DNA of 64,000 nt. It comes from Acidimicrobiaceae bacterium (GTDB taxonomy: Bacteria; Actinomycetota; Acidimicrobiia; Acidimicrobiales; Bog-793). The notes below the pieces were generated by a model that had not been told where the DNA came from, made no database searches, and worked only from the letters and a program-made list of their open reading frames with translations. Position numbers and translations under genes: made by a program. Of the stretch, positions 6,197-64,000 are shown one piece after another (within the stretch, counting starts at the first letter, position 1; each line of letters begins with the position of its first letter). Location: the NCBI GenBank assembly GCA_003159795.1, contig PLPK01000054.1:1519-65518 (forward strand), in the 5' to 3' direction.

Positions 6197-6376
6197 CCTC
6201 GACCGCGCGCTATTACACGAAGGTCTTTAGGTGGCTGACCGGTCAGTACGACCCAATTTCCAAGGGCGCCCGCTCATCTCGTGGCAGTGGTGCTATCATC
6301 CCTGTTCGCGGTCTCCAGTCAAGCAACAGGCAGCCTACAGACCGTGCAAGGGCCTTCCAACGAAGGGACGGGCCCA

Positions 6377-7345: not shown

Positions 7346-7454
7346 CTCGATGCTGGTCTTGGCCGTTGAGAGGCGACTTCGAAGTGGTGGATCTTAGGTT
7401 ACTTGGGGCGGTTCTCAGCTTCGCTGGGAAAGTTCTCGAGAAGGGTAGGCACGC

Positions 7455-8060: not shown

Positions 8061-8138
8061 GAGAGTCGCTCCCGGGAATGAGTGCATGAAGTCGTCAGCT
8101 GGTGAGCTTGCTCACCAGCTGCAGCGAGGTTAGCGGCC

Positions 8139-9272
8139 GTGAACCACGGAAGATCTTCTTGCGCCAGCAACCCGAATAAAAGGGCGGCACACGCGGCCCA
8201 CCTTCGGGCCTGTGCTTTGGTCGCTCTAGTGGCAAGTGGCATGGTCTGTGCCCGGTCAGCCGGAACACCGTTGCTGCCCCGGGCTACTTCCGCTCCATGG
8301 CAAACAGCATCGAGTTCGGTGTCTCGCCTCTGGCGCATAACCCTTCCAATCACCACAGCTGACGCCATGGGCATCAACACTCAGAGCCTCTTCGTCGCCT
8401 CAGGTGGAATAGCAAGTCATCAGCCTTTGACGGGGACGCTATTCCGGGTCGATCTCACTTCGGGCCGGGTCGTCGCGCAGGCGGCAACGGTCGGGTTGCC
8501 GTTCGCGGCCGCCGCGAGCAGGACAAAGGTGTGGGTCGGCGGGATCGCTTCTCCTGGAGCGCGTACTACCGGGGCAAACCAGATCGTTCAGGTGGACTCG
8601 CGGACTCTCAAAGTCGAGAAGACCTTCCGCGTCCTCACGCCCCTGGGTATCGCCCGAGATCGCGACGAGACGTTCTTCCTCTCCGGTGGCCCCGATGGGG
8701 CCGACGCGATCGTCATGGGTGTCACCCCGTCAGGGCTGAAGCGGCTTACAAAACTTGCCGTGATGCTGACGATGCAAGGAAGTCCTATCGTCTACTGCGC
8801 CGACCACCTCTACGTGGCAGCGCAGCTCGACATGAAACATGACACGGTATTCGATCTGACGAACAGCGGCCACGAGCGGCGGATGTGGCGCCTTTCCCAA
8901 ACGGGGTACGCGTACCTGGCCTGCGATCTCAGTCGTGTGTTCGCCACCACGACGAGCGGTGAGGTGTTTGAACTCGGAGCTGCTAGCAGGCCAGAGGTCA
9001 TCGGAAGGAGTGCCTCGCCGACCTCCGGGCTTGTCGTCGCGTCTGGGCGCGTTTGGACGATGGGCTACTTGGGCTGGAACCACAAGACCTCCACCGGTAA
9101 GTTTCGGCTCATCGGGTATAAGATTACGGAGTCTGGCGCCCGTGAGCCGCCGTTGGCCTACACGCTCACCAGCCGGTACGGTCCCCCCGCCATACTCGTC
9201 GGGACCGGAAACGAGCTGGTGGTTGGCGTTGGCACCGATTTCACCGCGCTGGTTGTTCGCGAGCACAAGTAA
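8139..9272 (+). CDS. hypothetical exported beta-rich (propeller-like?) protein; start uncertain
   Basis: Long ORF in the low-GC island. Hydrophobic N-terminal segment 'LRACALVALVASGMVCARS'. Repetitive beta-strand-like segments. Confidence 0.45.
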   Translation: MNHGRSSCASNPNKRAAHAAHLRACALVALVASGMVCARSAGTPLLPRATSAPWQTASSSVSRLWRITLPITTADAMGINTQSLFVASGGIASHQPLTGTLFRVDLTSGRVVAQAATVGLPFAAAASRTKVWVGGIASPGARTTGANQIVQVDSRTLKVEKTFRVLTPLGIARDRDETFFLSGGPDGADAIVMGVTPSGLKRLTKLAVMLTMQGSPIVYCADHLYVAAQLDMKHDTVFDLTNSGHERRMWRLSQTGYAYLACDLSRVFATTTSGEVFELGAASRPEVIGRSASPTSGLVVASGRVWTMGYLGWNHKTSTGKFRLIGYKITESGAREPPLAYTLTSRYGPPAILVGTGNELVVGVGTDFTALVVREHK

Positions 9273-9695
9273 CTGCGTGATCGTGAAGTCGCAGGTCTCG
9301 TAGCTGAGCTTCCCCCGTTTTGTCCCTATACCTGTCTGAAAGGCAACGTTCAGCGTCTCATATCCGACAGGTCGGAATCACCGCGAGATACTGCCACCTC
9401 GCGCCAGGCCTCTAACCAGCACAGTTATCGGTTTTCTTCTTGGTCACCCTCCGGTGCCAACAAAATGTCGGCGAGACTTCTTCGCGGGACGTCGTCGATC
9501 ACCGCGGGTACGATTTTCGGAATTGGAGAAACGCCGCGCGTCTGCGTTCGGGGTCTCGGTCGTGTCCTTGTGGCTGAGCCGTGCCGACACGGTCCCGGTT
9601 CATCGGCGACTTCGCCGGTCACCCACCGAGGGGTGTCGACCCGCCTGGCGAAGGTTCAGGCCCGGCCCGCCGGCCAGTTCGGCACGTCCAGTGAC

Positions 9696-11378
9696 TCAGT
9701 AGCAGACGCCGGCCGTGGTGGAGGGATATGCCCACCCGTTGTACTGGAAGTTCGTAGTCGAGAGCGAGGCGTGGTCCTTGGTCAGGCTCCAACCAGCCAC
9801 GGGCGTCCCTTTGGCCCATTGCGTGTACGTCGGGGCCCGCCCGAGTCTGCCGCTCTGCATGACCGTGCTGAGGACGCCCCCGAGCTTGGCCGAACCCTTC
9901 CATTGCCCGGGCGAGAGCACCCAGGTGTGCTCGCCACCGACGACGTCGCCGTTGCTCTCGACGGTGGGCGGCAGGGAGTCGTCGTACACGAAGACCGCGG
10001 GGCCACCTGACGTCGCATTGACCAGCGAGAAGGCCAGTCCGCCGAGCTCACCCCCCGAACCGCTCAGCTCCGCGAGGACTTGGGCGATGCTCGCGGCGTT
10101 GTCGACCATCGTCGCCAGCGCCTTGCCCGCTTCGCTCGACGCTCTGGCGCCCTTGAGGGCCGAGAGCGCCGCAAAGAACCCCTCGTAGCGGACGTTCCCT
10201 GGCGCCTTGACATCCAGCGTCTGGTAGTCCGTGGCGGTCGTCAGCTCGCCGGTCCACGCGTTCGTCGCCACCGCCCGCAGCTCCCATGAGCCGGGGACGG
10301 TGCCGACCGTCAGCGTGAAGTCGTAGGTGCCGTTCTGGTCCGTCGCGACGTCGATCGACCTGCCGCTGGGCGTCGACAACAAGCCGGTCGGCCACACCCT
10401 CACTCCCGAATTGCAGACTGCGACCCGCGGGCCCGTGGTGACTGCGGCCTGATACCCCATGCTCGGCTGTGGCTCCAGGAGGACGTGCGCATCGGGAACG
10501 GCTTTGCCGAACTCGGTCACGGTCAGCGTTCCCCCCACGACCGTCGTGCCGTCGGCGGGCACCGAAGACCGCGTCAGGATCAGCTTCACCTTCATGCCCG
10601 TGTCGAGCGTGAAGTCTGCCCGCGCGTCCCCGCCGTCCGGCAGCGGCACGCTGGCGCTGCCAGGCTTGTACTTGGCGTCACCCGCGCCCTTCGGCACCCC
10701 AGAGGGGACGACCTTGTAGTCGCCAGCCTTCACATCGAACGTGTAGAAGCCGGTGCCGGCCTGCACCGCAGTCGTGCCGCCCGAGGGGCCGGTCACAGTC
10801 ACCGACGCCCCCGGCACACCCTGGTGGTTCTCGTCTTGCACGTAGCCGCTGATCGTGCCGCCCGGCTTTTCCGAGTTCCACAGCAAGAAGATCAAGGGCG
10901 CTTCGTTGTTCTGGCGGTTGATGACGCCCGCCCAACTTGACCCCCGGGGCCCGACCTTCACATCGCAGCTCGTGGTGTTGGCCCCGCAGCCGGAAACCAC
11001 GTCGCCGCCCATGACCGTCCAGTCCAGGTGGTTGTAGACGCAGGCCTGGTCACCGCAGGCCACCGAGGTCGAGGTTTGCAGGGGTGCCGGGCCGACGAGG
11101 TGGAACACGCCCTTCTTGTCGGGGTGCATGAACAGTTCGACCGTGCCGCCTCCGGGGATATTCATGTCCTCCGAGCCGGTGTACCAGTACTTCGGTACTG
11201 GCGGGGGCTTCGGGGTCGTGTCCCGGGGGAAGGGCGCCGCGGCGGCACCTCCCATCACGACTGACGGGACGCTCAGCCCCATCCCGAGAGCGACAGCGAC
11301 GGCCAAAAGGCCGCACCTCCAGCGGGCGCTGGCTCTTGCCGTACTCGATCCGAAAGAACCTCGTCGAGCAGCAATCAT
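9696..11378 (-). CDS. large secreted protein with a carboxypeptidase-regulatory-like (CarboxypepD_reg / Ig-like) domain
   Basis: Signal peptide 'RWRCGLLAVAVALGMGLSVPSVVMGGAAA' after the Met at 11378. 'ISGYVQDENHQGVPGASVTVTGPSGGTTAVQAGTGFYTFDVKAGDYKVV' matches the CarboxypepD_reg pattern. Confidence 0.6.
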   Translation of the reverse strand: MIAARRGSFGSSTARASARWRCGLLAVAVALGMGLSVPSVVMGGAAAAPFPRDTTPKPPPVPKYWYTGSEDMNIPGGGTVELFMHPDKKGVFHLVGPAPLQTSTSVACGDQACVYNHLDWTVMGGDVVSGCGANTTSCDVKVGPRGSSWAGVINRQNNEAPLIFLLWNSEKPGGTISGYVQDENHQGVPGASVTVTGPSGGTTAVQAGTGFYTFDVKAGDYKVVPSGVPKGAGDAKYKPGSASVPLPDGGDARADFTLDTGMKVKLILTRSSVPADGTTVVGGTLTVTEFGKAVPDAHVLLEPQPSMGYQAAVTTGPRVAVCNSGVRVWPTGLLSTPSGRSIDVATDQNGTYDFTLTVGTVPGSWELRAVATNAWTGELTTATDYQTLDVKAPGNVRYEGFFAALSALKGARASSEAGKALATMVDNAASIAQVLAELSGSGGELGGLAFSLVNATSGGPAVFVYDDSLPPTVESNGDVVGGEHTWVLSPGQWKGSAKLGGVLSTVMQSGRLGRAPTYTQWAKGTPVAGWSLTKDHASLSTTNFQYNGWAYPSTTAGVCY

Positions 11379-51682: not shown

Positions 51683-52687
51683 ATGAGAAGAAGAACCGCC
51701 GCGACGCCCGCCGGGAGCCGGCCGCGGGAGCACAGTGGCGCGAGGTGGGAGCCCGGGGCGGGTGACCGACGTCGCCGTCTCGTCGCCGCGCCACCCCGGC
51801 GGCGGGCCGGCGTGATCCTCCCGGCGACGCTGCTCGCGCTGGCGTGCGTTAGCCCTGCCGCCTCCGGCAGGTGGCAAGCGCCCGACAGCGCGCCGATCAA
51901 GCCGGTGAGGATCATCCCGGCTCCCAGGGCCCTCGTCGACGGGACCGCGCCCCTGCCCGGCGGCGTCATCTGGGTCCTCTACGGGAACCGGTCGGCGATG
52001 CGGCTCGGCCGCGTCGAGCTCTCGACGGGCGCGACGCGGCACTCCGTCGCGGTGAGCCGCACGGCGACGTGCATCGCCGGGTCGTCACGGGGCGTCATCG
52101 CCCTCGGGCTCGCGCGGCCGACGACCGGTGCAGTCGAGTTCCTCGATGCGACGACGGGTCGGCGGGTCGGCTCGGCCGCGGTCAAGGGCCCCGTGCGGGC
52201 GCTCGCTTTCGGCTACGGAGGCGAGACGCTCTACGTCCTGAACGGCACGGCGGCGTCGATGGCGGTCACGCGCATCAACACCTCGTCATTCCACGTCGCT
52301 CGGGCGGAGCGCGTGCCCCACGACTCCATCGGGATCGTCCCCGACCGGTCCGAGACAGCCGTCTGGACCCTGCAGCGGTCGGGTGCGCTCGAGGAGACGT
52401 CGCTCACCTCGGGCGAGACGCTCGCCGCCTTGTCCACGGGGAACCCGGGTGTCGCGGTCGCCGCCTCGCCCGACGGCGACCGCATCTACGTCCTGAAACG
52501 GACGGCCACCACGATGAACGTTTCGATCATCACGTCCGCGACCGAGGATGTCGCGCGTTTGGTCCCCGTCGCCCTCGACTCCGTCTCGCTCGCACTCTCG
52601 CCAGACGGCCGCACCCTCTACGACTTCGTCGGGACACCCCGCTACGGCAACATCCAGGAGATCGCCCTGGCAAGGGGCGGCGGCTGA
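51683..52687 (+). CDS. exported YVTN/YncE-like beta-propeller repeat protein (start uncertain)
   Basis: Hydrophobic leader 'VILPATLLALACVSPAAS'. Repeats such as 'GETLYVLNGTAASMAV', 'SPDGDRIYVLKRTATTMNV', 'SPDGRTLYDF'. Confidence 0.55.
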   Translation: MRRRTAATPAGSRPREHSGARWEPGAGDRRRRLVAAPPRRRAGVILPATLLALACVSPAASGRWQAPDSAPIKPVRIIPAPRALVDGTAPLPGGVIWVLYGNRSAMRLGRVELSTGATRHSVAVSRTATCIAGSSRGVIALGLARPTTGAVEFLDATTGRRVGSAAVKGPVRALAFGYGGETLYVLNGTAASMAVTRINTSSFHVARAERVPHDSIGIVPDRSETAVWTLQRSGALEETSLTSGETLAALSTGNPGVAVAASPDGDRIYVLKRTATTMNVSIITSATEDVARLVPVALDSVSLALSPDGRTLYDFVGTPRYGNIQEIALARGGG

Positions 52688-52822
52688 CGCGGTGACGCGG
52701 GCCACGCCGGTCCCCGGGCGGGGACGCGTGACCTCACCGGGGAAGGGCCGAGAACCGCGCCGTCCCGCACCGGCGGGTCGCTCATCCCGCCCCCGCCGAT
52801 GCCGTGACGGTAGCGCTGAAGG

Positions 52823-54295
52823 TCAGTCCACCCCCACCAGGGTCTTCACCGCCGCGATGATGGCCCGCAGGCCGGCCTGCGCGTCGGCGAAGAACATGCC
52901 CGTCTTCGGGTCGGTGTAGAGCTCGTTGTCGATGCCGGCGTAGCCGTAGCCCATCGATCGCTTGATGACAATGATGCTCTTCGCCTTGTCGACGTCGAGG
53001 ATCGGCATGCCCGAGACGGCGTTGCCGGGCCGGCGGGCGGCCGGATTCGTCACGTCGTTCGCCCCGATCACCAGGGCGACATCGGCGCGCGGGAACTCCG
53101 GGTTGATCTCCTCCATCGTCTTCAGTTCCTCATAGGGAACCTCGGCCTCGGCGAGCAGGACGTTCATGTGGCCCGGCATCCGGCCAGCAACCGGGTGGAT
53201 GGCATAGGACACCTCGACCCCGCGCTTTTCCAACAGGTCCGCCAGCTCCTTCACCGAGTGCTGGGCGTGGGCGGCGGCAAGCCCGTAGCCCGGGACGATG
53301 ATCACCTTCTGCGCGTAGGCGAGCTGGATCGCGACGTCGTCCGCCCCGACCGAGCGCACCTGGCCAGTGGCGCCGGCGCCGATCACGCTCGCCGTGTCGC
53401 CCGTGCCGAACCCGCCGGCGACGATGTTGAGGATCGAGCGGTTCATCGCGTCGGCCATCAGCTTCGTGAGAATGCTGCCGGAGGCGCCGACGAGCGCGCC
53501 GGCGATGATCAGCCCGAGGCTGTTGATGACGAACCCCGCCATCGCGACCGCCGTCCCCGTGAAGGCGTTCAACAACGAGATCACGACGGGCATGTCCGCG
53601 CCGCCGATCGGCATGACCATGATCACGCCCATGACGAGGGCGGCGATGGCGATCCCGATCAGCGTGATGTCGCTGTTCGCCCCGGACAGGATGTACCCGG
53701 TTCCGGCGCACAGGGCGAGAGCCAGCACGAGGTTGATGAAGCGGCCACCGGGGATGACAATCGGGTTCGACGGGATGAAGCCCTGCAGCTTGCCCGCCGC
53801 CACGATCGAGCCCGAGAGCGTCACGGCGCCGATCACGACGTCGAGGACGCTCGTCACCGAGATCCTCGCCGCGATGGTCGGCGCGCCGGCGATCCCGGCG
53901 AGGCGCACGAAGTCGGCGATCGCGACGAGCGCCGCCGCGCCGCCGCCGACGGCGTTGAACAGGCTCACGAGTTGCGGCATCGCCGTCATCTCGACCGAGC
54001 GCGCGAGGTACAGCCCGATGCCGGAGCCGAGGACGCCGCCCACGGCCAGCATGAGCCAACCGGTCGTCGTGATCGTCCCGTCATGGGCGATGAGGGCGAG
54101 GGTCGCCGCGACGGCAACGGCCATGCCGACCGCCGACAGCCGGTTCCCGTGGTTCGCCGTCGGCGGCGCGTTCATCAGGTGGAGGCCGATGACGAAGCAC
54201 GTCGCGGCCAGCAGCAGGATCAGCGTGATGCCGTCCTCGAAGGCGTACGACGGGGAGACGAAGTGGAACATGATAGAAGCGGTGACGGCGCCCAT
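52823..54295 (-). CDS. pntB: NAD(P) transhydrogenase subunit beta
   Basis: Nine or more TM segments, then dIII 'VIIVPGYGLAAAHAQ', 'YAIHPVAGRMPGHMNVLLAEA', 'VIGANDVTNPAA'. Confidence 0.92.
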   Translation of the reverse strand: MGAVTASIMFHFVSPSYAFEDGITLILLLAATCFVIGLHLMNAPPTANHGNRLSAVGMAVAVAATLALIAHDGTITTTGWLMLAVGGVLGSGIGLYLARSVEMTAMPQLVSLFNAVGGGAAALVAIADFVRLAGIAGAPTIAARISVTSVLDVVIGAVTLSGSIVAAGKLQGFIPSNPIVIPGGRFINLVLALALCAGTGYILSGANSDITLIGIAIAALVMGVIMVMPIGGADMPVVISLLNAFTGTAVAMAGFVINSLGLIIAGALVGASGSILTKLMADAMNRSILNIVAGGFGTGDTASVIGAGATGQVRSVGADDVAIQLAYAQKVIIVPGYGLAAAHAQHSVKELADLLEKRGVEVSYAIHPVAGRMPGHMNVLLAEAEVPYEELKTMEEINPEFPRADVALVIGANDVTNPAARRPGNAVSGMPILDVDKAKSIIVIKRSMGYGYAGIDNELYTDPKTGMFFADAQAGLRAIIAAVKTLVGVD

Positions 54296-54621
54296 CAGGA
54301 GTTACCCCCCTGCTCGGTCGCTTCCTTCGCGGCCGGGGCCGGACGACGCTGGAACATCTGGAGCATCCGGTCGGTGACCGCGTAGCCGCCGACGACGTTC
54401 ATGCCCGCGAACACCGCCGCGATGAAGGCGAGCACGTAGCCGACCGTGTTGTGCGCCGTCGAGGCGATGAGGAAGGCGCCCACGATCACGACCCCGTGGA
54501 TGGAGTTCGCGGCCGACATCAACGGCGTGTGGAGCGTCTGGGGGACCTTGGAGATCACCTCGAACCCCACAAGAAGACTGAGCACGAAGATCGTGACATC
54601 AGTGATGAGACTCGTATCCAT
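54295..54621 (-). CDS. pntAB: NAD(P) transhydrogenase subunit alpha part 2 (membrane)
   Basis: 108-aa protein with three TM segments: 'FVLSLLVGFEVISKVPQTLHTPLMSAANSIHG'. ATGA overlap with pntB. Confidence 0.85.
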   Translation of the reverse strand: MDTSLITDVTIFVLSLLVGFEVISKVPQTLHTPLMSAANSIHGVVIVGAFLIASTAHNTVGYVLAFIAAVFAGMNVVGGYAVTDRMLQMFQRRPAPAAKEATEQGGNS

Positions 54622-54625
54622 CGAC

Positions 54626-55864
54626 TCAGGCTCCGTTCGCTAGTGGTTTGCCGGTGCCCGACCCCGCCAGTTCCGCCGTCGCGGGGTTGACCACCTTTCC
54701 TGCGTGGGTGATGACCACACCGGCCTGGATCTCGTCGGTGAGGTCGATTGCCACCTTCCCGTCGGAGACGAGGTGAGCGACAAGTGCACAGATGTTGTGC
54801 GAGTACGCCGTCGACGCCGCGCCCGCCATCGTCGAGGGAAGGCTCCCGGCCCCAATGATCGTCACCCCGTGCTCCGTGACGACCGTGTCGTCGTGACGGG
54901 ACCCCTCGACGTTGCCGCCGAGCTCGCTCGCCGCCATGTCGACGATCACCGACCCGGCGCGCATCGCCCGCACGGCCTCCACCGTGACGAGCAACGGCGG
55001 GCGCCGCCCGGGGACCTGCGCCGTCGTGATGACGACGTCGTGCTGGGCGATGTGCCCGTTCAGTTCCTCCTGCTGCGCCTTGGTCTCCTCGGCGGTGAGG
55101 GCCCGGGCGTAGCCGCCCTCGCCGACCGCCTCGCCGACCGACTTCAGCTCGACGAAGCGACCACCGAGCGACTCGACCTGCTCCTTCGCTTCGGGACGCA
55201 CGTCGTAGCCCCGGACGATGGCGCCGAGCCGGTGGCAGGTCGCGATCGCCTGGAGCCCGGCCACCCCGGCGCCGAGCACGAGCACCTCGGCGGGACGGGC
55301 GGTCCCGGCCGCCGTCATGAGGAGCGGGAAGTAGCGCCCGTAGGCGCCCGCTGCCACGAGGGCGGCCTTGTAGCCGGCGATGTTCGCCTGCGAGCTCAGC
55401 GCGTCCATCGACTGCGCGCGGCTGAGGGTGCGCGGCAGGTTGTCGAGGCTCACGGCGGTGACGCCGCGCCCCGCGAGCAGGCCCGCGAACCCGGGGTCGA
55501 CGAGCGGGGCCAGCAGGCCGATGACGACCTGGCCCGGCCGCAGCTTCTTCACGTCGGCGGCCGAGGGCCGGCCGACGTAGAGGACGACGTCGGATTCCGC
55601 CAGGCACTTGGCCCGGGCGACGACGGTAGCCCCCGCCTGGACGTAGGCGTCATCGAAGAACCACGCTTGCCGGCCCGCGTTCTTCTCGACGAAGACCGCA
55701 TAGCCCGCCCCGTGGAGCTTGCCTACGTCGTCGGGGACGAGTGCGACCCGCTGCTCACCGTCGGCCCCTTCGCGCACGACGGCCACCGAAGGCTCGGTGG
55801 CCTCCGTGGGACCCTTCTCCGGCACCTGTGGCGCCGCGGACGGTTCCGCCCGATCAGCCATCAT
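54626..55864 (-). CDS. pntAA: NAD(P) transhydrogenase subunit alpha part 1 (dI, alanine-dehydrogenase-like)
   Basis: 'RVALVPD', 'LSRAQSMDALSSQANIAGY', 'VLVLGAGVAGLQAIA', 'VITTAQVPGRRPP'. Confidence 0.88.
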   Translation of the reverse strand: MMADRAEPSAAPQVPEKGPTEATEPSVAVVREGADGEQRVALVPDDVGKLHGAGYAVFVEKNAGRQAWFFDDAYVQAGATVVARAKCLAESDVVLYVGRPSAADVKKLRPGQVVIGLLAPLVDPGFAGLLAGRGVTAVSLDNLPRTLSRAQSMDALSSQANIAGYKAALVAAGAYGRYFPLLMTAAGTARPAEVLVLGAGVAGLQAIATCHRLGAIVRGYDVRPEAKEQVESLGGRFVELKSVGEAVGEGGYARALTAEETKAQQEELNGHIAQHDVVITTAQVPGRRPPLLVTVEAVRAMRAGSVIVDMAASELGGNVEGSRHDDTVVTEHGVTIIGAGSLPSTMAGAASTAYSHNICALVAHLVSDGKVAIDLTDEIQAGVVITHAGKVVNPATAELAGSGTGKPLANGA

Positions 55865-55987
55865 CTCCCTCCTTGGGTGGCCCGAGTCACCGCGGCACCC
55901 ATCAGTCGGGCCGCCGGCGCACCCGGCGCCGCCGACCCCCGTCTAATCGATCCAGAGCAGCCGGTCGCGCCGCAGCCGATACGTGGT

Positions 55988-57616
55988 TCAGATCAGCTCC
56001 GGCACCATGACGATCGCGCCGCAGGGGCATTCGGCGACACAGATGCCGCAGCCCTTGCAGTAGTCGTAGTCGAACACGTACCGCTCGCCGGGCCCGAGCT
56101 TAGACACCGCGTTGTCGGGGCAGACCCCATAGCAGTTGTCGCACTCGAAACAGTTGCCGCACGACAGGCAGCGACGCGCCTCGAAGAGCGCGTTTGGTTC
56201 GTCGAGCCCGCCCACGACCTCCTCGAACCCGGTCTGACGTCGCTGCGCCTCGAGCTCGGGCTGGACCGTACGGCCGGCATCCGCGTAGTACCACGTGTTC
56301 AGCGTCTCGATCGAGGCGAGCTCGTGACGGGGCGGCGGCCCCCCCGTTTCGCCCCGAAGCCAACGGTCGATGTTGCGGGCGGCGCGCTTGCCGTGCCCGA
56401 CGGCAACGGTGACGGTGCGCTCGGCTGGGACCATGTCGCCCCCGGCGAAGACGCCGGAGTGGCCAGTCATCATCTGGGCGTCGACCACCACGAGGCCGTC
56501 GCGCACCTCGACGCCCTCGAGGGCCGCGAGCGGCGCGAGATCGGCGTCCTGGCCGAGGGCGAGGATCACGCAGTCGGCGTCGAGGTTGGTGAACTCACCG
56601 GTCGGCTGCGGGAAGCCGGCGGAATCGAGCTCCATCTTCTCGACGAGGACCTTGTCCTTTTCCACTCGCGAGATCGTCGACATCCAGCGCACGGTCACAC
56701 CCTCGGCGAGCGCCTCCTCGACTAGGTCGGCGTGGGCGGGCATCTTCCGGCGGTTGCGCCGGTAGACGATCACGGCGTCGGTCGCGCCGAGTCGCTTGGC
56801 GCTGCGGGCTGCGTCCATCGCCGTGTCGCCGCCGCCGTAGACGACGACGCGGCGGCCGATCGCCACCGGCTCCGCCGCCTCGGTGCCCGCCAGAAAGGCG
56901 AGCGCGTCCAGCAGGCGGGCCGAGTCGGCGGCTGGGACCTGCACGCGGTGCGACAGCTGCGCGCCAAGAACGAGGTACGCCGCGTCGAAGGCGCCCTCCG
57001 CCATCGCCGAGGCGATGTCGGCCACGCCCGCGTCGCAGCGGATCTCGACCCCGAGGTCCTCGATCGCCGAGATCTCGGCGTCGATCACCTCGCGGGGCAG
57101 CCGGTACTTCGGGATGCCGTAGCGCAGCATCCCGCCTGGCCTGGGCGCCGCCTCGCGCACGACGACCTCGTGCCCGGCCCGCGCGAGGTGGTAGGCGGCG
57201 GAGAGGCCCGACGGGCCGGACCCGACGACGAGCACCCGCCGTCCCGTCGCGGGGGCGCGCTCGGGCAGCCGCCAGCCGTGCGCGATCGCCGCGTCGCCGA
57301 GAAACCGCTCGACGGCGCGGATGCCGACGGCCTCGTCGACCTTGCCCCGGTTGCAGGCGGCCTCGCAGGGGTGGAAGCAGACCCGCCCACAGATCGCGGG
57401 CAGCGGGTTGTCCTCGACGAGCCCGCGCCACGCCGCCTCGTAGGCCCCGGCCTCGGCGTGGTACAGCCAGCGCTGGATGTTCTCGCCAGCCGGGCAGGCG
57501 TCGTTGCACGGCGGCATACGGTCGACGTAGATGGGCCTCTCGACCCGCCACGACCCGGTTCGGTTGTCCCGGCTCGACCCAGCGTCGAGCGTGATCGCGA
57601 ACGGGTGCTCGCTCAC
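55988..57616 (-). CDS. fusion protein: PorD-like N-terminus, GltD/NfnB/SudA-like NAD(P)H:FAD oxidoreductase and a C-terminal 2x[4Fe-4S] ferredoxin. It is the last gene of the OFOR operon.
   Basis: 'NRTGSWRVERPIYV' (PorD-like), 'CNDACPAGENIQ', 'CFHPCEAACNRG' (GltD Fe-S), 'VLVVGSGPSGLSAAYHLARAGH', 'GGMLRYGIPKYRLP', C-terminal 'CLSCGNCFECDNC...CPDNA...CKGCGICVAECPCGAI'. GTGA overlap with the beta subunit. Confidence 0.75.
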   Translation of the reverse strand: MSEHPFAITLDAGSSRDNRTGSWRVERPIYVDRMPPCNDACPAGENIQRWLYHAEAGAYEAAWRGLVEDNPLPAICGRVCFHPCEAACNRGKVDEAVGIRAVERFLGDAAIAHGWRLPERAPATGRRVLVVGSGPSGLSAAYHLARAGHEVVVREAAPRPGGMLRYGIPKYRLPREVIDAEISAIEDLGVEIRCDAGVADIASAMAEGAFDAAYLVLGAQLSHRVQVPAADSARLLDALAFLAGTEAAEPVAIGRRVVVYGGGDTAMDAARSAKRLGATDAVIVYRRNRRKMPAHADLVEEALAEGVTVRWMSTISRVEKDKVLVEKMELDSAGFPQPTGEFTNLDADCVILALGQDADLAPLAALEGVEVRDGLVVVDAQMMTGHSGVFAGGDMVPAERTVTVAVGHGKRAARNIDRWLRGETGGPPPRHELASIETLNTWYYADAGRTVQPELEAQRRQTGFEEVVGGLDEPNALFEARRCLSCGNCFECDNCYGVCPDNAVSKLGPGERYVFDYDYCKGCGICVAECPCGAIVMVPELI

Positions 57617-58626
57617 CTCGACCCCTTTCCGGCCCGCTCGCCCAACAGGTCGAAACGCCCGATGTTGCGGTCGGCGATCGCCTGAATGCGGGCGATGTCG
57701 TCGGTCCGCGGCGGGTCCGCGAAGAGGTGGGCGAAACGCCGTTGGGGACGCAGGTACGCCTCGACGGGCTCGCGGTGCCGGATCGGCGTCGCCGAGAGGA
57801 TCTCCCCGTGGGCCGCCTCGAAGAGGGGGAAGAGGCCCGTCTCGCAGGCGAGGCGGGCGAGGCGGATCGTGTCCCGGGACGCCGCACCCCAGCCAAGCGG
57901 GCACGGCACGAGGACGTGCAGGTAGCGCGCGCCGTGCAGCTCCATCGCCCTGCCGACCTTGGCCTCGAGGTCGTGGAGGTAGGCGACAGAGGCGGTCGCG
58001 ACGTACGGGATCTCGTGCGCCACGGCGAGGGCCGGGAGGTTCTTGCCCTGGCCGAAGGCGTTGCCGGGCTCGCGGCCCCGGGCCTCGGTGGTCGCGGTGC
58101 GCGCCGCGGCGGGCGTCGAGGCGGAGCGCTGCACCCCAGTGTTCATGTAGGCCTGGTTGTCGTAGCAGACGAACAGGACGTCGTCGTTGCGCTCGAACAT
58201 GCCCGAGAGGCAGCCGAAACCGATGTCGACCGTTCCCCCGTCCCCTGCCTGGGCGATGACCCGGGTGGCCGTGTCGCCGCGCACCTTCAGCGCCGCGGCG
58301 ACGCCGGTGGCGACGGCGGCGGTGTTGCCGAACAGCGAGTGCATCCAGGCGACCTGCCACGCGGTCTCGGGATACGGCGTCGAGAAGACCTCCAGGCACC
58401 CCGTGGCGTTGACGACGATCAGCTGCCGGTCGGTCGCGGCCATCGCCGCGTCGAGGACAAAGCGGGCGCCGAGCGCCTCGCCGCACCCCTGGCAGGCCCG
58501 GTGGCCCGAGGTGAGCGCGTTCGGGCGGAGGCGGTCGGACTGCACCGTGCGCAGGTGTGGGTCGACGAGGCGGTTGCCGACCGCGAAGCTGCCCACTTGG
58601 CAATAGCTCGACGTCTGCTCGGTCAC
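57613..58626 (-). CDS. 2-oxoacid:ferredoxin oxidoreductase beta subunit (TPP-binding)
   Basis: 'GHRACQGCGEALG', 'GDGGTVDIGFGCLSGMFERNDDVLFVCYDNQAYMNTGVQRS'. Confidence 0.85.
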   Translation of the reverse strand: MTEQTSSYCQVGSFAVGNRLVDPHLRTVQSDRLRPNALTSGHRACQGCGEALGARFVLDAAMAATDRQLIVVNATGCLEVFSTPYPETAWQVAWMHSLFGNTAAVATGVAAALKVRGDTATRVIAQAGDGGTVDIGFGCLSGMFERNDDVLFVCYDNQAYMNTGVQRSASTPAAARTATTEARGREPGNAFGQGKNLPALAVAHEIPYVATASVAYLHDLEAKVGRAMELHGARYLHVLVPCPLGWGAASRDTIRLARLACETGLFPLFEAAHGEILSATPIRHREPVEAYLRPQRRFAHLFADPPRTDDIARIQAIADRNIGRFDLLGERAGKGSR

Positions 58627-58636
58627 GGCGGGCTCC

Positions 58637-59899
58637 CTAGACGATCCGCGCCGCGTTCTCGCGGACGTCGCGCGGCACCCGCGCGGTGCTCGGTGCCCTG
58701 CGGGGGTCCTCCGCCATTCGGGCGAGCTCCCGGTCGACGACGACCCGGTCGAGATCGAGGAAGCTCATCGCGCCGAGCTCACCCCGGATCGCCTCGCCGA
58801 GGACCCGTCGCAGAGACGCCTCGGGGATCGACCGGCCGCCGAGGCCGGCGACGACCGTGTAGGTCTTCGTGCCGCGGTCCGAGACAAGCGCGTCGACCTG
58901 GGCGCCGAGGACCCCCCGACCGCCGACGGCGAAGGCCTTCTCGATGACGACGACGCGGTGCGCCCCCTCGAGCGCCTGGCCGAGCGCCTGCTCGGGGAAC
59001 GGCCGGAAGGTCGTCACAGCTACGACGCCGATCTTCAGGCCCTCCTCGCGCATCTGGTCGACGACGTCTTTCACGGTGCCCACGACCGATCCGAGCGCGA
59101 CGACGATCGTCTCGGCGTCCTCGCTCCGGTAGGCCGAGACGAGCCCGCCACTCGGACGCCCCACGACGCGCTCGAACTCGGCCGCGAGCTCCGGGATGCA
59201 GACGAGTGCCTCGAGCAGACGCGCGTGGGCGAGGTAGCGGACCTCGGTGAAGGCCTCCGGCCCGACCATCGCGCCGATCGAGACCGGTGCGGCCGGATCG
59301 AGGACCTGTTGCGGCGCGAACGGGCGCAGGTAGCGGTCGACCTGCTCCTGGGTCGGGATCTCGACCCGTTCCACCGAGTGGGTGAGGATGAAGCCGTCCA
59401 TGCAGACCATCACCGGCACGCTGAGCCTCTCGGCGAGCCGGAAGGCCTGGATGTGCAGGTCGACGGCGTGCTGATTCGTCTCGGCGAAGAGCTGGATCCA
59501 CCCTGAGTCGCGCAGCGCCATCGCGTCCGAATGGTCGTTCCCGATGTTGATCGGCGCGCCCACGGCCCGGTTCGCCACCGTCATCACGATCGGCAGTCCG
59601 AGACCGGAGGCGTTAAAGACGGCCTCCGCCATGTCGAGCAGTCCCGGGCCCGACGTCGCCGTGTAGGCCCGGGCCCCGGTCGCGGCGGCGCCGATCGAGA
59701 CCGACATCGCGGCGAACTCCGACTCGACGTTGATGAACTCACAGGGCTTCAGCCGCCCCGACTTCACGAGCGAACCGACGCCCTCGATGATGTGCGTCTG
59801 CGGGGAGATCGGGTAGGCACTAACGACCCGTGGACGGCACAGCGCGACCGCCTCGGCGACGGCCCGCGACCCCTCAATCTGGCGGAGCACCGACGGCAC
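58637..59899 (-). CDS. 2-oxoacid:ferredoxin oxidoreductase alpha subunit
   Basis: 'GSRAVAEAVALCRPRVVSAYPISPQT', 'ESEFAAMSVSIGAAATGARAYTATSGPGL'. Confidence 0.85.
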   Translation of the reverse strand: MPSVLRQIEGSRAVAEAVALCRPRVVSAYPISPQTHIIEGVGSLVKSGRLKPCEFINVESEFAAMSVSIGAAATGARAYTATSGPGLLDMAEAVFNASGLGLPIVMTVANRAVGAPINIGNDHSDAMALRDSGWIQLFAETNQHAVDLHIQAFRLAERLSVPVMVCMDGFILTHSVERVEIPTQEQVDRYLRPFAPQQVLDPAAPVSIGAMVGPEAFTEVRYLAHARLLEALVCIPELAAEFERVVGRPSGGLVSAYRSEDAETIVVALGSVVGTVKDVVDQMREEGLKIGVVAVTTFRPFPEQALGQALEGAHRVVVIEKAFAVGGRGVLGAQVDALVSDRGTKTYTVVAGLGGRSIPEASLRRVLGEAIRGELGAMSFLDLDRVVVDRELARMAEDPRRAPSTARVPRDVRENAARIV

Positions 59900-60485
59900 T
59901 CCTCTCGCGGGTCGCCCATGTCCCCACCATCCCGCGGGTCAGGTTGAACGCCTCGGTCGCGGCGGCAACATTCCCCTCACGCATCGCCCCTGAGAAGCGG
60001 TCCTCGATCGCGGTGACGACAGCCGCGAGCGAGACCGCCCCGGTGAGCGCGGCGAAACCACCAAGCAGCACGGTGTTCGGCAGCGGCCGGCCGAGGTGCT
60101 GCAGGGCGATCTCCGTCGCCCGCAGCCCCAGCACGTGGTTCTCGGGCAGTTCGGCCACGAATCCCGCGACGCCGATCGCCACGAGGGTCTTCGTCGTGTT
60201 GACGAGCACCCAGCCATGGGACCTGAGGCCGGCGAACAACCCCGCCTGACGGAGCAGCGTCGCGTCCTGGATCACGAGCGCGTCGGGTTCGTCGATCGGC
60301 GAACGCGTCCGGATCTCCCTCTCGCTGATGCGGCAGAACGAGACGACCGGGGCACCGGTCCTCTCGGAGCCGAAGCTCGGGAAGGCCTGGGCGTGACGAC
60401 CGTCGTTGAACGCCGCCACGGCGAGCAGCTCCGCCGCCGTGACCACGCCCTGTCCGCCCCGCCCATGGATCCGAACCTGGAACAT
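59874..60485 (-). CDS. 2-oxoacid:ferredoxin oxidoreductase gamma subunit
   Basis: 'MFQVRIHGRGGQGVVTAAELLAVAAF..G.HAQAFPSFGSERTGAPVVSFCRIS'. Confidence 0.85.
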   Translation of the reverse strand: MFQVRIHGRGGQGVVTAAELLAVAAFNDGRHAQAFPSFGSERTGAPVVSFCRISEREIRTRSPIDEPDALVIQDATLLRQAGLFAGLRSHGWVLVNTTKTLVAIGVAGFVAELPENHVLGLRATEIALQHLGRPLPNTVLLGGFAALTGAVSLAAVVTAIEDRFSGAMREGNVAAATEAFNLTRGMVGTWATRERSAVGAPPD

Positions 60486-60691
60486 CGGCAGCCTCGCTGT
60501 CCGTCCACCGGACGCTTCGCCCGAGCACCATTCCATGGCCTGGTCACTCGCTTCCCCCTGATGGTCGCGTCGGACCGCCTTGCCCTCCAGGGTCGATGGT
60601 CACAAGCCCCCCGGTCTTTGGCCCACAAACTGCTTTGCAAATGGGTCGACCGGCCCTTCCACCCGGCGAGGCGGCGCCCTAACGTGTCGGC

Positions 60692-61843
60692 GTGCCTTCC
60701 CCCGACGCTGTCGTCATCGATGCGAACGGGGTCGACTCGCTCATCACGTCGCTTCGGGCCCAGGGCTTCCGTGTCATGGGCCCGGTTGTCGCCAACGGTG
60801 CCATCGTCCATCGCGAGATCCGAGCTGCCAAGCAGCTCCCGGTCGGCTGGCACGACGAGCAGGAGCCGGGTTCGTACCGGCTGAGCCACGGCGACGACGG
60901 TGAGATGTTCGGATGGGCGGTCGGACCCGAGTCGTTTAAGCAGTCCGTTTTCCCCTCCCGGTCGGTGCTCTGGCGGGCCCGACGCGACGGCCAGGACTTG
61001 GCCGTCGAAGCCACCGGCGACGACGTCGCGCCCGAGGCCTTCTTCGGGGCCCGTCCCTGCGAGGTCGCGGCGCTGAAGGTCCTCGGCGGGGTGCTCGCCG
61101 GGGCGGCGAGCCCCGATCCCGTGTTCACGCGCCGGCGCGAGACCGCCTTCGTCGTCACCGTCGAGTGCGGCCGGCCGGCGGCGACGTGCTTTTGCACCTC
61201 GATGGGGAGCGGCCCCGGGGCGGCAGCGGACTTCGACCTCGCGCTGACGGAGCTCGCGGGTCCCTCGGGGCGCTTCCTCGTGCGGGTGGGCTCCGAGCGA
61301 GGCGCGGCCGTGCTCGCGGGCGTCGCCTCCCGACCCGCCACAGCCGAAGACCACCGGGCCCGTGACGAGGTCCTCGGCCACGCGGTGGCGGCGATCAGCC
61401 GAACACTCGACGCCGAGGCGGCGCCGGGACTGCTCGCCCGCAACCTCGAGCACCCCCGCTGGGACGACGTCGCCGGGCGTTGCCTCGCCTGCGGGAACTG
61501 CACGCTCGTATGCCCGACCTGTTTCTGCGCCGCCGTCGAGGAGACGACGGACCTTGCCGGCACGGTCGAGGAGACCCGGCGCTGGGACACCTGCTTCGAC
61601 CTCGCCCACTCCTACCTCCACGGCGGCTCGGTGCGGGTGTCCACGCGATCCCGGTACCGCCAGTGGATGACGCACAAGCTTTCGACCTGGGTCGACCAGT
61701 TCGGGAACTCGGGCTGCGTGGGCTGTGGGCGCTGCATCACGTGGTGTCCGGCGGGCATCGACATCACCGAGGAGTGCGCGGCGATCGCGGCAAGCGACGG
61801 CGCGGTCAAGACGAGCGAACCCACCGCGGTTCGGGACAGGTAG
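60692..61843 (+). CDS. Fe-S subunit, AsrA/HydB-like (beta subunit of a group-3b-type NiFe hydrogenase)
   Basis: 'CLACGNCTLVCPTCFC', 'CVGCGRCITWCPAGIDI'. First gene of a B-(cNMP)-G-D-A ordered operon. Confidence 0.7.
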   Translation: MPSPDAVVIDANGVDSLITSLRAQGFRVMGPVVANGAIVHREIRAAKQLPVGWHDEQEPGSYRLSHGDDGEMFGWAVGPESFKQSVFPSRSVLWRARRDGQDLAVEATGDDVAPEAFFGARPCEVAALKVLGGVLAGAASPDPVFTRRRETAFVVTVECGRPAATCFCTSMGSGPGAAADFDLALTELAGPSGRFLVRVGSERGAAVLAGVASRPATAEDHRARDEVLGHAVAAISRTLDAEAAPGLLARNLEHPRWDDVAGRCLACGNCTLVCPTCFCAAVEETTDLAGTVEETRRWDTCFDLAHSYLHGGSVRVSTRSRYRQWMTHKLSTWVDQFGNSGCVGCGRCITWCPAGIDITEECAAIAASDGAVKTSEPTAVRDR

Positions 61844-61848
61844 GCGTC

Positions 61849-62316
61849 ATGGAAGAGATGAGCGAACTCATCGCCAAGAACTCGTTGTTCGCCGGTCTGC
61901 CGGACTCGACGATCCAGCTCGCCGTCGGCTGCGCGCAGAACGTCACCTTCGAGCCGGGCGCGCGCATCCTCGTCGAAGGCGAACCGGCCGACACGCTGTA
62001 CTTGCTGCGCCGCGGGCGGGTCGCCCTGCAGGTGCAGCGCCCCTCGGGCAAGCCGCTCATCATCGAGACCATCGGCCCGAACAGCGTCCTCGGCTGGTCC
62101 TGGCTCGTGCCGCCCTACCGCTGGCAGTTCGACGGCGTGGCGATCGACCCGGTCGGCGCCATCGCGATCGACGGCACGTGCCTGCGGGCCAAGGCCGACG
62201 CCGATGCCGTCTTCGGCTACGAGCTGCTGCGGCGCATCAGCGGCGTGCTGCTGAGCCGCCTGCAGTCGACCCGCGTCCGGCTCCTCGACCTGTACGGGCA
62301 CAGCCTTGATGACTGA
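61849..62316 (+). CDS. stand-alone cyclic-nucleotide-binding-domain protein (no HTH or other output domain)
   Basis: 'LFAGLPDSTIQLAVGCAQNVTFEPGARILVEGEPADTLYLLRRGRVALQV...IETIGPNSVLGWSWL' is the CAP/cNMP beta-barrel followed by the C-helix. It ends at 155 aa, 5 nt after the upstream stop, and overlaps the next gene by 8 nt. Confidence 0.75.
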   Translation: MEEMSELIAKNSLFAGLPDSTIQLAVGCAQNVTFEPGARILVEGEPADTLYLLRRGRVALQVQRPSGKPLIIETIGPNSVLGWSWLVPPYRWQFDGVAIDPVGAIAIDGTCLRAKADADAVFGYELLRRISGVLLSRLQSTRVRLLDLYGHSLDD

Positions 62317-63154
62317 GACGGAGCACGTGTCGCCGGGGCCTTTCGTGCCCTCCCGCTACCGGGTCGTCGACCGCAAGACTGAGAACTCGGACATCACCAC
62401 GCTGTGGCTCGAGCCGGTCGACCGTCCGATCGCGCCGTTCAAGGCGGGGCAGTTCAACATGCTGACCGCCTTCGGGGTCGGCGAGGTCGCCATCTCGATC
62501 AGCTCGGCGCCGGGCGCGCCGGGCGCGATCGAGCACACGGTGCGCGACGTCGGTGCCGTGAGCCACGCGCTCGCGTCGTCCCAGATCGGCGACGTCGTCG
62601 GTCTGCGTGGCCCGTTCGGCACGGACTGGGGTCTCGAGAGCCTCACTGGCTGCAACGTCGTCGTCGTCGTCGGCGGCATCGGCCTCGCACCGCTGCGCGG
62701 CGCGATGCGCTACCTCGCCGAGAACCCCGCGCCCGACCGCAAGGTCGTGCTGCGCGTCGGCGCCCGCCTGCCGGACCAGATCGTCTTCCCAGAAGAGATG
62801 GAACGCTGGCGGGAGATGGGCGTCGACGTCGAGGTGACCGTCGACGTCGCCGACGCCGCCTGGACGGGGCATGTCGGTGTCGTGACCCAGATCCTCACCG
62901 AGCTGCCCTTCGACGGTGCCGGTGCGGTCGCGCTCGTCTGCGGGCCCGAGATCATGATGCGCTTCAGCGCGCGTTCGCTCATCGACCTCGGCGTCTCCCC
63001 CGAGAACATCCGGGTCTCGCTCGAGCGCAACATGCAGTGCGGGATCGCACTCTGCGGGCACTGCCAGCTCGGACCGTTTCTTTTGTGCCGGGACGGGCCC
63101 GTCGTGCCCTACGCGCCGCTCGCGGCGGAACTGATCACGGAGATCGAGAGATGA
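62309..63154 (+). CDS. FAD/NAD(P)-binding plus [2Fe-2S] oxidoreductase, AsrB/HydG-like (hydrogenase gamma subunit)
   Basis: 'FKAGQFNML' (FAD barrel), '[13 protein letters not shown]' (NAD), C-terminal '[24 protein letters not shown]'. Confidence 0.75.
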
Positions 63155-63924
63155 CGATGCGACCGACCCTCGCCGTTTGGAAGTTCGCCTCCTGTGACGG
63201 CTGCCAGCTCGGCATCCTCGACCTCGAGGACGAACTGCTCAGCCTCGTGGGGGCCGTCCAGATCGCGAGCTTCACCGAGATGACGAGCGCCGTCATCGAC
63301 GGACCCTACGACGTCTCGCTCGTCGAGGGCTCGATCACGACCCCCGACGACGCCGACCGGATCCTCGCCGTGCGCGAGGCCTCCGGCCTCCTCGTCACCA
63401 TCGGCGCTTGCGCGACGGCGGGCGGCATCCAGGCGCTCCGCAACTACGCCGACGTCGGCGAGTACACCTCGACCGTCTACGCCCACCCCGAGTACATCAC
63501 GACCCTGGCCGAGTCCAGCCCGATCTCGTCATACGTCAAGGTCGACTTCGAGCTGCGCGGCTGCCCGATCAACCGCTACCAGATCGTCGAGGTCGTCACG
63601 GCACTGCTCGCGGGCCGTCGCCCGGTCATCCCGGGTTACAGCGTTTGCGAGGAGTGCAAGATGGCCGGCAACCTCTGCGTCCTCGTCGCCCACGGGACTG
63701 CGTGCCTCGGGCCCGTGACGCGGGCGGGCTGCGGGGCCCTCTGCCCCGCCGTCAACCGCGGCTGCTACGGCTGCTTCGGGCCGGCGGACACGACGAACAC
63801 CGCCTCGCTCGCGAGACGGCTCACCGAGCTCGGTACGTCCGAACGGGGGATCTCGCGGCTGTTTCGGACGTTCAACTCCGCCGCAACCGAGTTCTCAAAG
63901 GAGAGTCTCGAGCATGACGCCTAG
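63151..63924 (+). CDS. NiFe-hydrogenase small (delta, NuoB-like 20-kDa) subunit
   Basis: '[14 protein letters not shown]', '[14 protein letters not shown]', 'RGCPIN', '[30 protein letters not shown]...GCYGCFGP'. ATGA overlap with the upstream gene. Confidence 0.8.
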
Positions 63925-64000
63925 CGGAGACAGCGCCAACCGCGCGATCGACGTCCACGGGCTCGCCCGTGTCGAAGGGGAGGGGTCGCTGCACGTCGCG
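63914..64000 (+). CDS. NiFe-hydrogenase large (alpha) subunit, N-terminal 29 aa only (continues past the window end)
   Basis: '[29 protein letters not shown]': the 'L.RVEGEG' start is typical of group 3 large subunits. Position is after the small subunit. Confidence 0.6.

Follow-up and report, generated by a model that had tools for sequence, protein, structure and literature searches.

The 64,000-nucleotide stretch of contig PLPK01000054.1 of an Acidimicrobiaceae bacterium analysed here (the window; G+C content approximately 70%) carries on its minus strand genes for the gamma, alpha and beta subunits of a 2-oxoacid oxidoreductase (porG, porA and porB), followed by a gene for a 542-residue protein. 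The locus raises the question of where the fourth subunit of such enzymes, the delta subunit PorD, resides, and to which acceptor the electrons are passed. The four genes probably encode one complex, a pyruvate-type 2-oxoacid oxidoreductase with a flavoprotein module for reduced nicotinamide adenine dinucleotide phosphate (NADPH) inserted into its delta subunit, which would have ferredoxin-independent 2-oxoacid:NADP+ activity. The operon proteins were scanned against Pfam and NCBIfam profiles and PDB chains, and the Pfam and NCBIfam scores of the subunits are far above chance. The features of the operon and of the 542-residue protein are given below in window positions.

59874-60485, minus strand: porG, gamma subunit, 203 amino acids (Pfam POR PF01558, E 3e-37; TIGR02175 PorC_KorC, 189 bits against a cut-off of 81)
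58637-59899, minus strand: porA, alpha subunit, 420 amino acids (POR_N, E 6e-66, and PFOR_II, E 3e-27)
57613-58626, minus strand: porB, beta subunit, binding thiamine pyrophosphate (TPP) and one [4Fe-4S] cluster, 337 amino acids (TPP_enzyme_C, E 5e-18)
55988-57616, minus strand: delta::NfnB-like fusion gene, 542 amino acids (NCBIfam NF009410, sequence checked)
57518-57616, minus strand: N-terminal PorD arm NRTGSWRVERPIYV, residues 1-33 of the fusion protein (PorD_Arch match)
56156-57517, minus strand: circularly permuted NfnB/GltD-type module, residues 34-487 (Fer4_20, PDB and TIGR01318 alignments)
55988-56155, minus strand: PorD-type 2x[4Fe-4S] ferredoxin domain, residues 488-542 plus stop (PorD_Arch 483-540; PDB 9bt4_G 488-540; motif scan)

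The order porG, porA, porB, fusion gene was taken from the list of open reading frames (ORFs). The start of porG at 60485 is favoured by a profile alignment that begins at residue 1 of MFQVRIHG; for porA the GTG at 59890, 8 nt past an AGGAG box, is more probably the start than the GTG at 59899. The end of porG (59874) and the start of porA overlap by 17-26 nt, depending on the porA start, and because these two genes overlap there is no room for a delta gene between them. The genes porA and porB are separated by 10 nt. The fusion gene begins with a GTG at 57616 within GGTCGAGGTGAGC and shares GTGA with the TGA stop of porB (DNA at the junction, GGG TCG AGG TGA GCG). A mechanically listed ORF of 871 amino acids (55988-58603) was rejected as the true gene: upstream of the fusion gene it runs in a different frame from porB and shows no homology. 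Scans of 52500-61000 for sigma-70 promoters and intrinsic terminators returned no match and are uninformative at a G+C content of about 70%.

Among NCBIfam models, the best match of the alpha subunit is PorA_Arch (NF040682) and that of the beta subunit PorB (NF008819), while the gamma subunit was compared with the pyruvate-synthase PorC model NF040683. In the PDB, the alpha subunit matches that of the pyruvate:ferredoxin oxidoreductase (PFOR) of Methanosarcina acetivorans (9bt4_B) with 350 bits and oxalate oxidoreductase with 207 bits; for the beta subunit the corresponding values are 294 bits (9bt4_C) and 208 bits. The cluster cysteines of the beta subunit (CxxC, GC, PC) line up with those of the solved PFOR 9bt4_C.

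A stand-alone porD was not found in the 64-kb window. All six frames of the 64 kb were scanned for the motif Cx2Cx2-8Cx3CP, with four matches, two in the fusion protein and two in a neighbouring hydrogenase beta-like gene. The fusion protein as a whole matches NCBIfam NF009410 (PRK12771, 'NAD(P)-binding protein') with 738 bits against a cut-off of 516, residues 6-540 corresponding to profile positions 19-565 of 566. Its Pfam domains are Fer4_20 (35-114, E 1e-20), Pyr_redox_2 (127-409, E 2e-29) and Fer4_7 (488-534); Pyr_redox also matches. When residues 1-57 are scanned alone, residues 7-32 match PorD_Arch positions 6-31 (E 8e-5), and T20, G21 and W23 of this arm are conserved in at least 90% of 32 diverse homologs. 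The C-terminus (483-540) matches PorD_Arch and TIGR02179 PorD_KorD in the native protein and carries the two ferredoxin-domain motifs, C489-x2-C492-x2-C495-x3-C499-P and C520-x2-C523-x2-C526-x3-C530-P. No contiguous PorD (TIGR02179; NF040684) is found in the native protein, in which an insertion of about 450 residues keeps the arm and the cluster motifs apart.

For comparison with complete delta subunits, residues 1-33 and 482-542 were joined in silico to a construct of 94 residues. This excision construct matches PorD_Arch in one stretch (positions 6-84 of 85, 87 bits) and TIGR02179 PorD_KorD with 81 bits (cut-off 60, positions 4-77 of 78). It also aligns with residues 3-83 of the 85-residue delta subunit of the Methanosarcina PFOR (9bt4_G, E 5e-18) and with residues 228-311 of the delta part of oxalate oxidoreductase (5c4i_B). 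From this end-to-end match it is concluded that the 542-residue protein is, in its sequence, a PorD interrupted between the N-terminal arm (TGSWR) and the first cluster motif.

The inserted module has the order C37-x3-C41-P, C80/C84/C88, Rossmann folds for flavin adenine dinucleotide (FAD) and NAD(P)H (127-409, carrying GGGDTAMD...VYRRNRRKMPA), a linker and then EARRC483LSC486G, an element that lies C-terminally in this module and N-terminally in canonical GltD and NfnB. Native matches to NfnB- and GltD-type chains in the PDB (160-219 bits) span merely residues 35-425 or so, and the native Fer4_20 match is limited to profile positions 30-112 (73.6 bits). The native protein also scores below the GltD-type equivalog cut-offs (gltA TIGR01316, 274 against 472; TIGR01318, 233 against 483), and residues from about 445 to 493 match the GltD N-terminus (TIGR01318 positions 4-51). 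When residues 432-487 are placed ahead of 34-431 in silico, the resulting re-permutation construct matches Fer4_20 positions 2-112 of 113 (96.6 bits), residues 8-463 of 468 of Thermotoga maritima NfnB (4ylf_B, 245 bits against 219 for the native order) and residues 3-449 of 456 of GltD (2vdc_G), and it is also near full length on P. furiosus NfnI-L and Azospirillum GltD. Because re-ordering the segments restores the full-length match, the inserted module is, by alignment, a circular permutant of NfnB/GltD.

The first cysteine motif of the module is split between its two ends, with C37xxxC41P at the start and RC483xxC486 at the end, and the true PorD motif (C489...) follows directly. With its termini inside its own first cysteine motif, the module could be inserted between the PorD arm and the first PorD cluster motif. 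The permuted order is shared by the large subunits 8oh5_C, 9bov_A and 9n5u_A and by PRK12814, and the permutation would therefore be older than the fusion.

Several claims of the initial annotation can be judged at this point. The gene order gamma, alpha, beta, 542-residue protein and the GTGA overlap with the beta stop are borne out by the ORF list and the DNA, and the overlap of porG and porA agrees with the lack of a porD between gamma and alpha. Its description of the last protein also holds in all parts: a PorD-like N-terminus (residues 1-57), a GltD/SudA/NfnB-type Fe-S, FAD and NAD(P)H core (Fer4_20, Pyr_redox_2 and the PDB matches) and a C-terminal 2x[4Fe-4S] domain with CxxCxxCxxxCP twice. 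An end-to-end alignment with stand-alone NfnB or GltD proteins was not obtained for the native chain, and the two ends together rebuild PorD.

Conservation of the cysteines was followed in two alignments, one of 32 homologs (A1) and one of 22 (A2), with identities down to about 35%. Fifteen cysteines are invariant in both: C37, C41, C80, C84, C88, C483, C486, C489, C492, C495, C499, C520, C523, C526 and C530. They include all eight ferredoxin-domain cysteines and the seven of NfnB type, and would fit four [4Fe-4S] clusters, two of PorD type and two of NfnB type, with one non-cysteine ligand, as in the NfnB structure. A further cysteine, C532 (in residues 531-541, window 55991-56023), lies directly past the last cluster motif ('ECPCGAI'); it is present in at least 90% of the close clade, and most distant members have arginine instead ('ECPRGA'). 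After the second Rossmann motif follows VYRRNRRKMPA, which resembles the NADPH-specific motif of GltD and NfnB; throughout the close clade, its Y285, R286, R287 and R289 do not vary. This points to NADPH rather than NADH as the cofactor.

Proteins of the NF009410 type are numerous. A word-indexed protein search gave at least 8000 matches, the top 120 of which are all about 541 residues long and at least 65% identical to the query; among the matches listed, the closest protein relatives are named Acidimicrobiales. In a library clustered at 50% identity, nearly full-length alignments with the query, at 36-47% identity, were obtained for about 70 of the 150 best-matching representatives. The fusion family has thousands of members and is widespread. 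A scan of GTDB species genomes with the 542-residue protein yielded at least 80 full-length loci (58-67% identity). They derive from Actinomycetota (Solirubrobacterales, Acidimicrobiia, a Streptomyces, Gleimia and Varibaculum, as well as Actinomycetaceae), Betaproteobacteria (Gallionella, Rhodocyclaceae, Sulfurisoma, Aquabacterium, Rubrivivax and Sutterella), Alphaproteobacteria (Azospirillum, Magnetovibrio and a metagenome-assembled Pelagibacteraceae genome), Gammaproteobacteria (Lysobacterales) and Acidobacteriota (Bryobacteraceae).

The gene order was counted in the 78 of 80 loci that have upstream DNA, and in all 78 the fusion gene follows porG, porA and porB, which share its strand and encode subunits 55-74% identical to those of the window. 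These three genes are the sole conserved neighbours across the 80 loci, and no other PorD-like ORF was found within about 7 kb of the fusion gene in any of them. More distant members (36-44% identity) were collected by a metagenome scan seeded with distant homologs of the fusion protein. Seven of their loci (L081, L082, L083, L085, L086, L091 and L100) have the order porG-fusion-porA-porB, with the fusion gene in the canonical porD slot; in L101 and L104 porG and the fusion gene are followed by the contig end, and the contig L092 of the same scan has the order porG-porA-porB-fusion. In two proteins of about 755 residues (P0160 and P0174), the delta::NfnB fusion is preceded by a POR gamma domain within one chain, and P0189 (1131 residues) unites POR_N, TPP_enzyme_C, Fer4_20, Pyr_redox_2 and Fer4. 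Four further long proteins (P0201, P0222, P0229 and P0253, approximately 850-1130 residues) match from query residue 32 or so onward. Because of the invariant operon, the position in the porD slot, the natural fusions and the lack of another porD, the fusion protein is very likely a physical part of the oxidoreductase complex.

In the proposed mechanism, radical chemistry on TPP in the active site of alpha and beta would decarboxylate the 2-oxoacid, and the electrons would pass from TPP to the [4Fe-4S] cluster of the beta subunit. From there they would reach the two PorD-type clusters (C489-C499 and C520-C530), then the two NfnB/GltD-type clusters (C483, C486, C37 and C41; C80, C84 and C88 plus one non-cysteine ligand), and at last, through FAD, NADP+. 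The net reaction would be 2-oxoacid + coenzyme A (CoA) + NADP+ to acyl-CoA + CO2 + NADPH, without a soluble ferredoxin. The potential of the pyruvate/acetyl-CoA couple is about -500 mV and that of NADP+/NADPH -320 mV. From this gap of about 180 mV it follows that the reaction would be oxidative and essentially irreversible. Besides the electron path itself, we infer NADP+ as the acceptor, NADPH over NADH, pyruvate as the substrate and the oxidative direction.

Several points weigh against this assignment. The alpha, beta and gamma subunits all score below the pyruvate-synthase equivalog cut-offs (431 against 550, 323 against 405 and 195 against 270 bits, respectively), and for this reason pyruvate is only a best guess as the substrate. 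The absence of porD holds for the 64-kb window, and the literature searched yielded no paper on the fusion and no biochemical study of its family. An AlphaFold2 model built with 39 close homologs has a mean predicted local distance difference test (pLDDT) score of 61.7; residues 1-40 and 428-542 score below 50, and the model therefore says nothing on the PorD part or on cluster geometry. The FAD of NfnB acts as the bifurcating flavin in NfnAB, which makes linear electron transfer an assumption. Free ferredoxin or flavodoxin might still reach the PorD-type clusters, and dual acceptor use is possible. With regard to the substrate, the same architecture may instead serve 2-oxoisovalerate or another branched-chain 2-oxoacid, 2-oxobutyrate, glyoxylate, oxalate or an aromatic 2-oxoacid, a possibility that is doubtful but has to be taken into account. 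Besides the scores below the cut-offs, it is favoured by the 285 bits that the beta subunit reaches on the beta model of 3-methyl-2-oxobutanoate dehydrogenase (VOR), and the PDB matches of alpha and beta include no solved VOR structure for comparison. Against it stand the PorA, PorB and PorC models as top matches of all three subunits and a bona fide PFOR as by far the closest of the solved structures. The motif YPISPQT looks like that of POR/VOR enzymes and unlike the Arg-containing motif of oxalate enzymes.

The acceptor is the subject of a further alternative, in which exposed PorD-type clusters reduce ferredoxin or flavodoxin and the NfnB-like module is a built-in ferredoxin:NADP+ reductase, an overflow valve that splits the electrons by need. 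The PorD domain is indeed complete and strongly conserved, many hosts (Azospirillum, Magnetovibrio, Rhodocyclaceae) have ferredoxin-consuming pathways, and the 2-oxoglutarate:NADP+ enzyme of Azoarcus reportedly passes electrons to both ferredoxin and NADP+. However, electrons leave both the solved four-subunit PFOR and oxalate oxidoreductase through delta, and here a second two-cluster wire and FAD are covalently attached to this subunit in every member, which makes NAD(P)+ the obvious terminal acceptor. As no ferredoxin gene is conserved near the operon in the 80 loci either, this alternative is considered unlikely. Bifurcation, confurcation or reversal is quite improbable: an NfnB-type FAD would split NADPH electrons, the low-potential one serving reductive carboxylation of an acyl-CoA and the other going to a high-potential acceptor. 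The module has homologs in the bifurcating subunit NfnB and in the NfnB-like parts of the complexes 8oh5_C, 9bov_A and 9n5u_A, and some hosts are autotrophs or microaerophiles (Gallionella, Sulfurisoma, Magnetovibrio). Yet no NfnA-like partner or high-potential branch is conserved beside the operon in the 80 loci, in the related GltD this module serves simple electron transfer from NADPH to clusters, and most hosts are heterotrophic Actinomycetota and Proteobacteria. There is little probability that a delta-embedded FAD couples NADPH to very low-potential TPP chemistry, whether as an NADPH-driven pyruvate synthase or as an energy-conserving split of pyruvate electrons, in place of a plain loss of about 180 mV; if it did, many aerobic or microaerophilic soil and water bacteria would possess a new class of enzymes with flavin-based electron bifurcation, derived from a 2-oxoacid oxidoreductase. 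The names in use, 'NAD(P)-binding protein' only at NCBI and often 'glutamate synthase beta subunit-like oxidoreductase' at JGI, would suit an independent, co-transcribed Fe-S flavoenzyme (a ferredoxin:NADP+ reductase or glutamate-synthase-like subunit) beside an oxidoreductase with a delta subunit from elsewhere or none. This is very hard to reconcile with two protein ends that together rebuild PorD in full, down to an N-terminal arm peculiar to the delta subunits of oxidoreductases, with a gene that occupies the porD slot of distant operons and is fused elsewhere to gamma and to alpha plus beta, and with the lack of a porD in the 80 loci.

The proposed NADP+-linked complex is best placed by comparison with known enzymes. 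The four-subunit PFOR PorABCD of Methanosarcina acetivorans (9bt4) has close homologs of alpha, beta and gamma; the cluster cysteines of beta are kept, and the window also has the N-terminal arm of delta together with its two cluster motifs. The PFOR has a separate delta of 85 residues, whereas some 450 residues, a module with FAD, NAD(P)H and two [4Fe-4S] clusters, break up the delta described here; the separate small delta (about 80-105 residues) that defines the four-subunit type, encoded between gamma and alpha, is lacking next to its alpha, beta and gamma. The gene order is G-D-A-B in the four-subunit PFOR and G-A-B-delta' in this clade, and the acceptor is ferredoxin in the former and predicted to be NADP+ in the latter. 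NfnB, GltD and SudA (4ylf_B, 5jca_L and 2vdc_G) have the same Fer4_20, FAD and NAD(P)H module (160-219 bits), with seven invariant NfnB-like cysteines in the fusion protein. They carry the motif RCxxCx4CxxxCP at the N-terminus, while here RCLSC lies at 482-486 in a permuted module inside PorD. Their partner subunits are NfnA/SudB or GltB; none is encoded alongside the fusion gene, and none is conserved beside the operon in the 80 loci.

In the eukaryotic pyruvate:NADP+ oxidoreductase (PNO), which occurs in Euglena and Cryptosporidium, one chain combines a PFOR with a cytochrome-P450-reductase-like domain that carries flavin mononucleotide and FAD. The predicted net reaction and the principle of an NADP+ reductase joined to a PFOR are the same; in the operon the subunits are separate and an NfnB/GltD-type Fe-S module inserted into delta takes the place of the reductase-like domain. 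The PNO-type domains Flavodoxin_1, FAD_binding_1 and NAD_binding_1 were not found by Pfam in the operon proteins. The enzyme of Azoarcus evansii, phenylglyoxylate:NAD+ oxidoreductase, has an additional flavoprotein subunit. One locus of the survey, L118 (3198-7605), has porG, a small stand-alone porD, porA, porB and then an armless GltD-like protein with a C-terminal ferredoxin domain; this layout resembles that of the Pad enzyme, and it is plausibly an unfused evolutionary intermediate. The 2-oxoglutarate:NADP+ oxidoreductase (KGOR) of Azoarcus evansii reportedly has subunits of 63, 62 and 37 kDa, three in all, and a two-subunit core of the KorAB type. It is unlikely to contain the present fusion: these sizes fit a different, second oxidoreductase cluster (L051, 10955-15585; L161, 6001-11664; also L029 and L070) of a GltD-like protein of about 600 residues, a Pyr_redox_2 protein of 350-372 residues, KorA and KorB. 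The protein of about 600 residues has Fer4_20, FAD/NAD(P)H and C-terminal 2x[4Fe-4S] domains and no PorD arm, and is 29% identical to the window protein. KorA of this cluster is a gamma-alpha fusion of about 595 residues. Across the Proteobacteria, Rhodocyclaceae among them, the cluster is widespread, and it is possibly a candidate for the Azoarcus-type 2-oxoglutarate:NADP+ oxidoreductase.

The phenylglyoxylate enzyme PadEFGHI (Hirsch et al. 1998, cited in PMC5109826) belongs to the same family and reduces a pyridine nucleotide. In the passage of PMC10134865 that cites Ebenau-Jehle et al. 2003 for the Azoarcus evansii KGOR, its extra FAD/Fe-S subunit is grouped with NsoC among GltD/NfnB-like proteins. 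A 2026 bioRxiv paper on KGOR concerns the ordinary ferredoxin-dependent enzyme of Thauera. In PadEFGHI the delta subunit (PadF, a model of 78 positions) is a separate protein and the substrate is aromatic, while in the window delta is fused. The NCBIfam models named 'NADH-dependent phenylglyoxylate dehydrogenase' match the window proteins weakly and below their cut-offs (259/700, 190/700, 149/300 and 38/150 for alpha, beta, gamma and delta, respectively). The initial annotation had seen in the operon a bacterial analogue of PNO built from different parts. This stands as a predicted bacterial variant of the same idea, with more precedent than the initial annotation implied, since PadEFGHI and the Azoarcus KGOR are NAD(P)-linked. 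With NAD(P)-linked enzymes of this family already described, the arrangement is not conceptually unprecedented: the principle is known, and this structural solution is catalogued by sequence (NF009410).

The operon is flanked in the window by genes for a transhydrogenase on the same strand and for a hydrogenase on the opposite strand.

52823-54295, minus strand: pntB (pnt gene set)
54295-54621, minus strand: pntAB (pnt gene set)
54626-55864, minus strand: pntAA (pnt gene set)
60692-61843, plus strand: hydrogenase beta Fe-S subunit (ShyB/HydB match below the equivalog cut-off)
61849-62316, plus strand: gene for a cyclic nucleoside monophosphate (cNMP)-binding protein, between beta and gamma (cNMP_binding)
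62306-63154, plus strand: hydrogenase gamma FAD/NAD subunit (ShyC/HydG/AsrB match below the equivalog cut-off)
63151-63924, plus strand: hydrogenase delta small subunit (ShyD/HydD match below the equivalog cut-off)
cut by the window end at 64000, plus strand: hydrogenase large subunit, start only

The three pnt genes, for a proton-translocating NAD(P) transhydrogenase, were identified by NCBIfam PRK09424 (386 bits against a cut-off of 383) and PRK09444. A gap of 123 nt separates the fusion gene from this downstream set, which has a strong ribosome binding site; no terminator consensus was found between the fusion gene and pntAA. Adjacent pnt genes were seen in one of 80 related loci (L037, where they are divergent), and the notion that they are part of a conserved system was rejected on this count. 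The divergent cluster 60692-64000 reads as a sulfhydrogenase-like [NiFe]-hydrogenase, putatively of group-3b type. A whole or partial set of these hydrogenase genes, usually including the cNMP gene, occurs near the por-fusion operon in eight Actinomycetota loci (L021, L030, L041, L055, L058, L063, L076 and L080). The context of hydrogenase and Pnt suggests an NADPH-centred module for the disposal of pyruvate electrons under hypoxia.

Elsewhere in the window, a bacterial class A RNase P RNA (4239-4586, plus strand) is the only Rfam match (RF00010, 240 bits, full length), and no tRNA genes were found. The stretch 5105-10010 is probably a mobile or foreign insertion: it starts with a DDE_3-family transposase gene (5105-6196), beyond which the G+C content is 0.60-0.63 against about 0.72 elsewhere and the ORFs 6281-7345, 7455-8060, 8139-9272 and 9465-10010 have no Pfam match.

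If the prediction for the por-fusion operon is true, many genes annotated as 'pyruvate ferredoxin oxidoreductase' and 'NAD(P)-binding protein' would together represent a ferredoxin-independent, NADPH-producing route from pyruvate to acetyl-CoA. The metabolic models of at least 80 species-level genomes would then change with respect to redox balance, NADPH supply and behaviour under hypoxia. With a flavoprotein in circularly permuted order lodged inside a small subunit of ferredoxin type, the protein is a clear natural example of domain insertion, by which an electron chain would be rewired, and may serve as a template for engineered NADPH-linked 2-oxoacid oxidoreductases.

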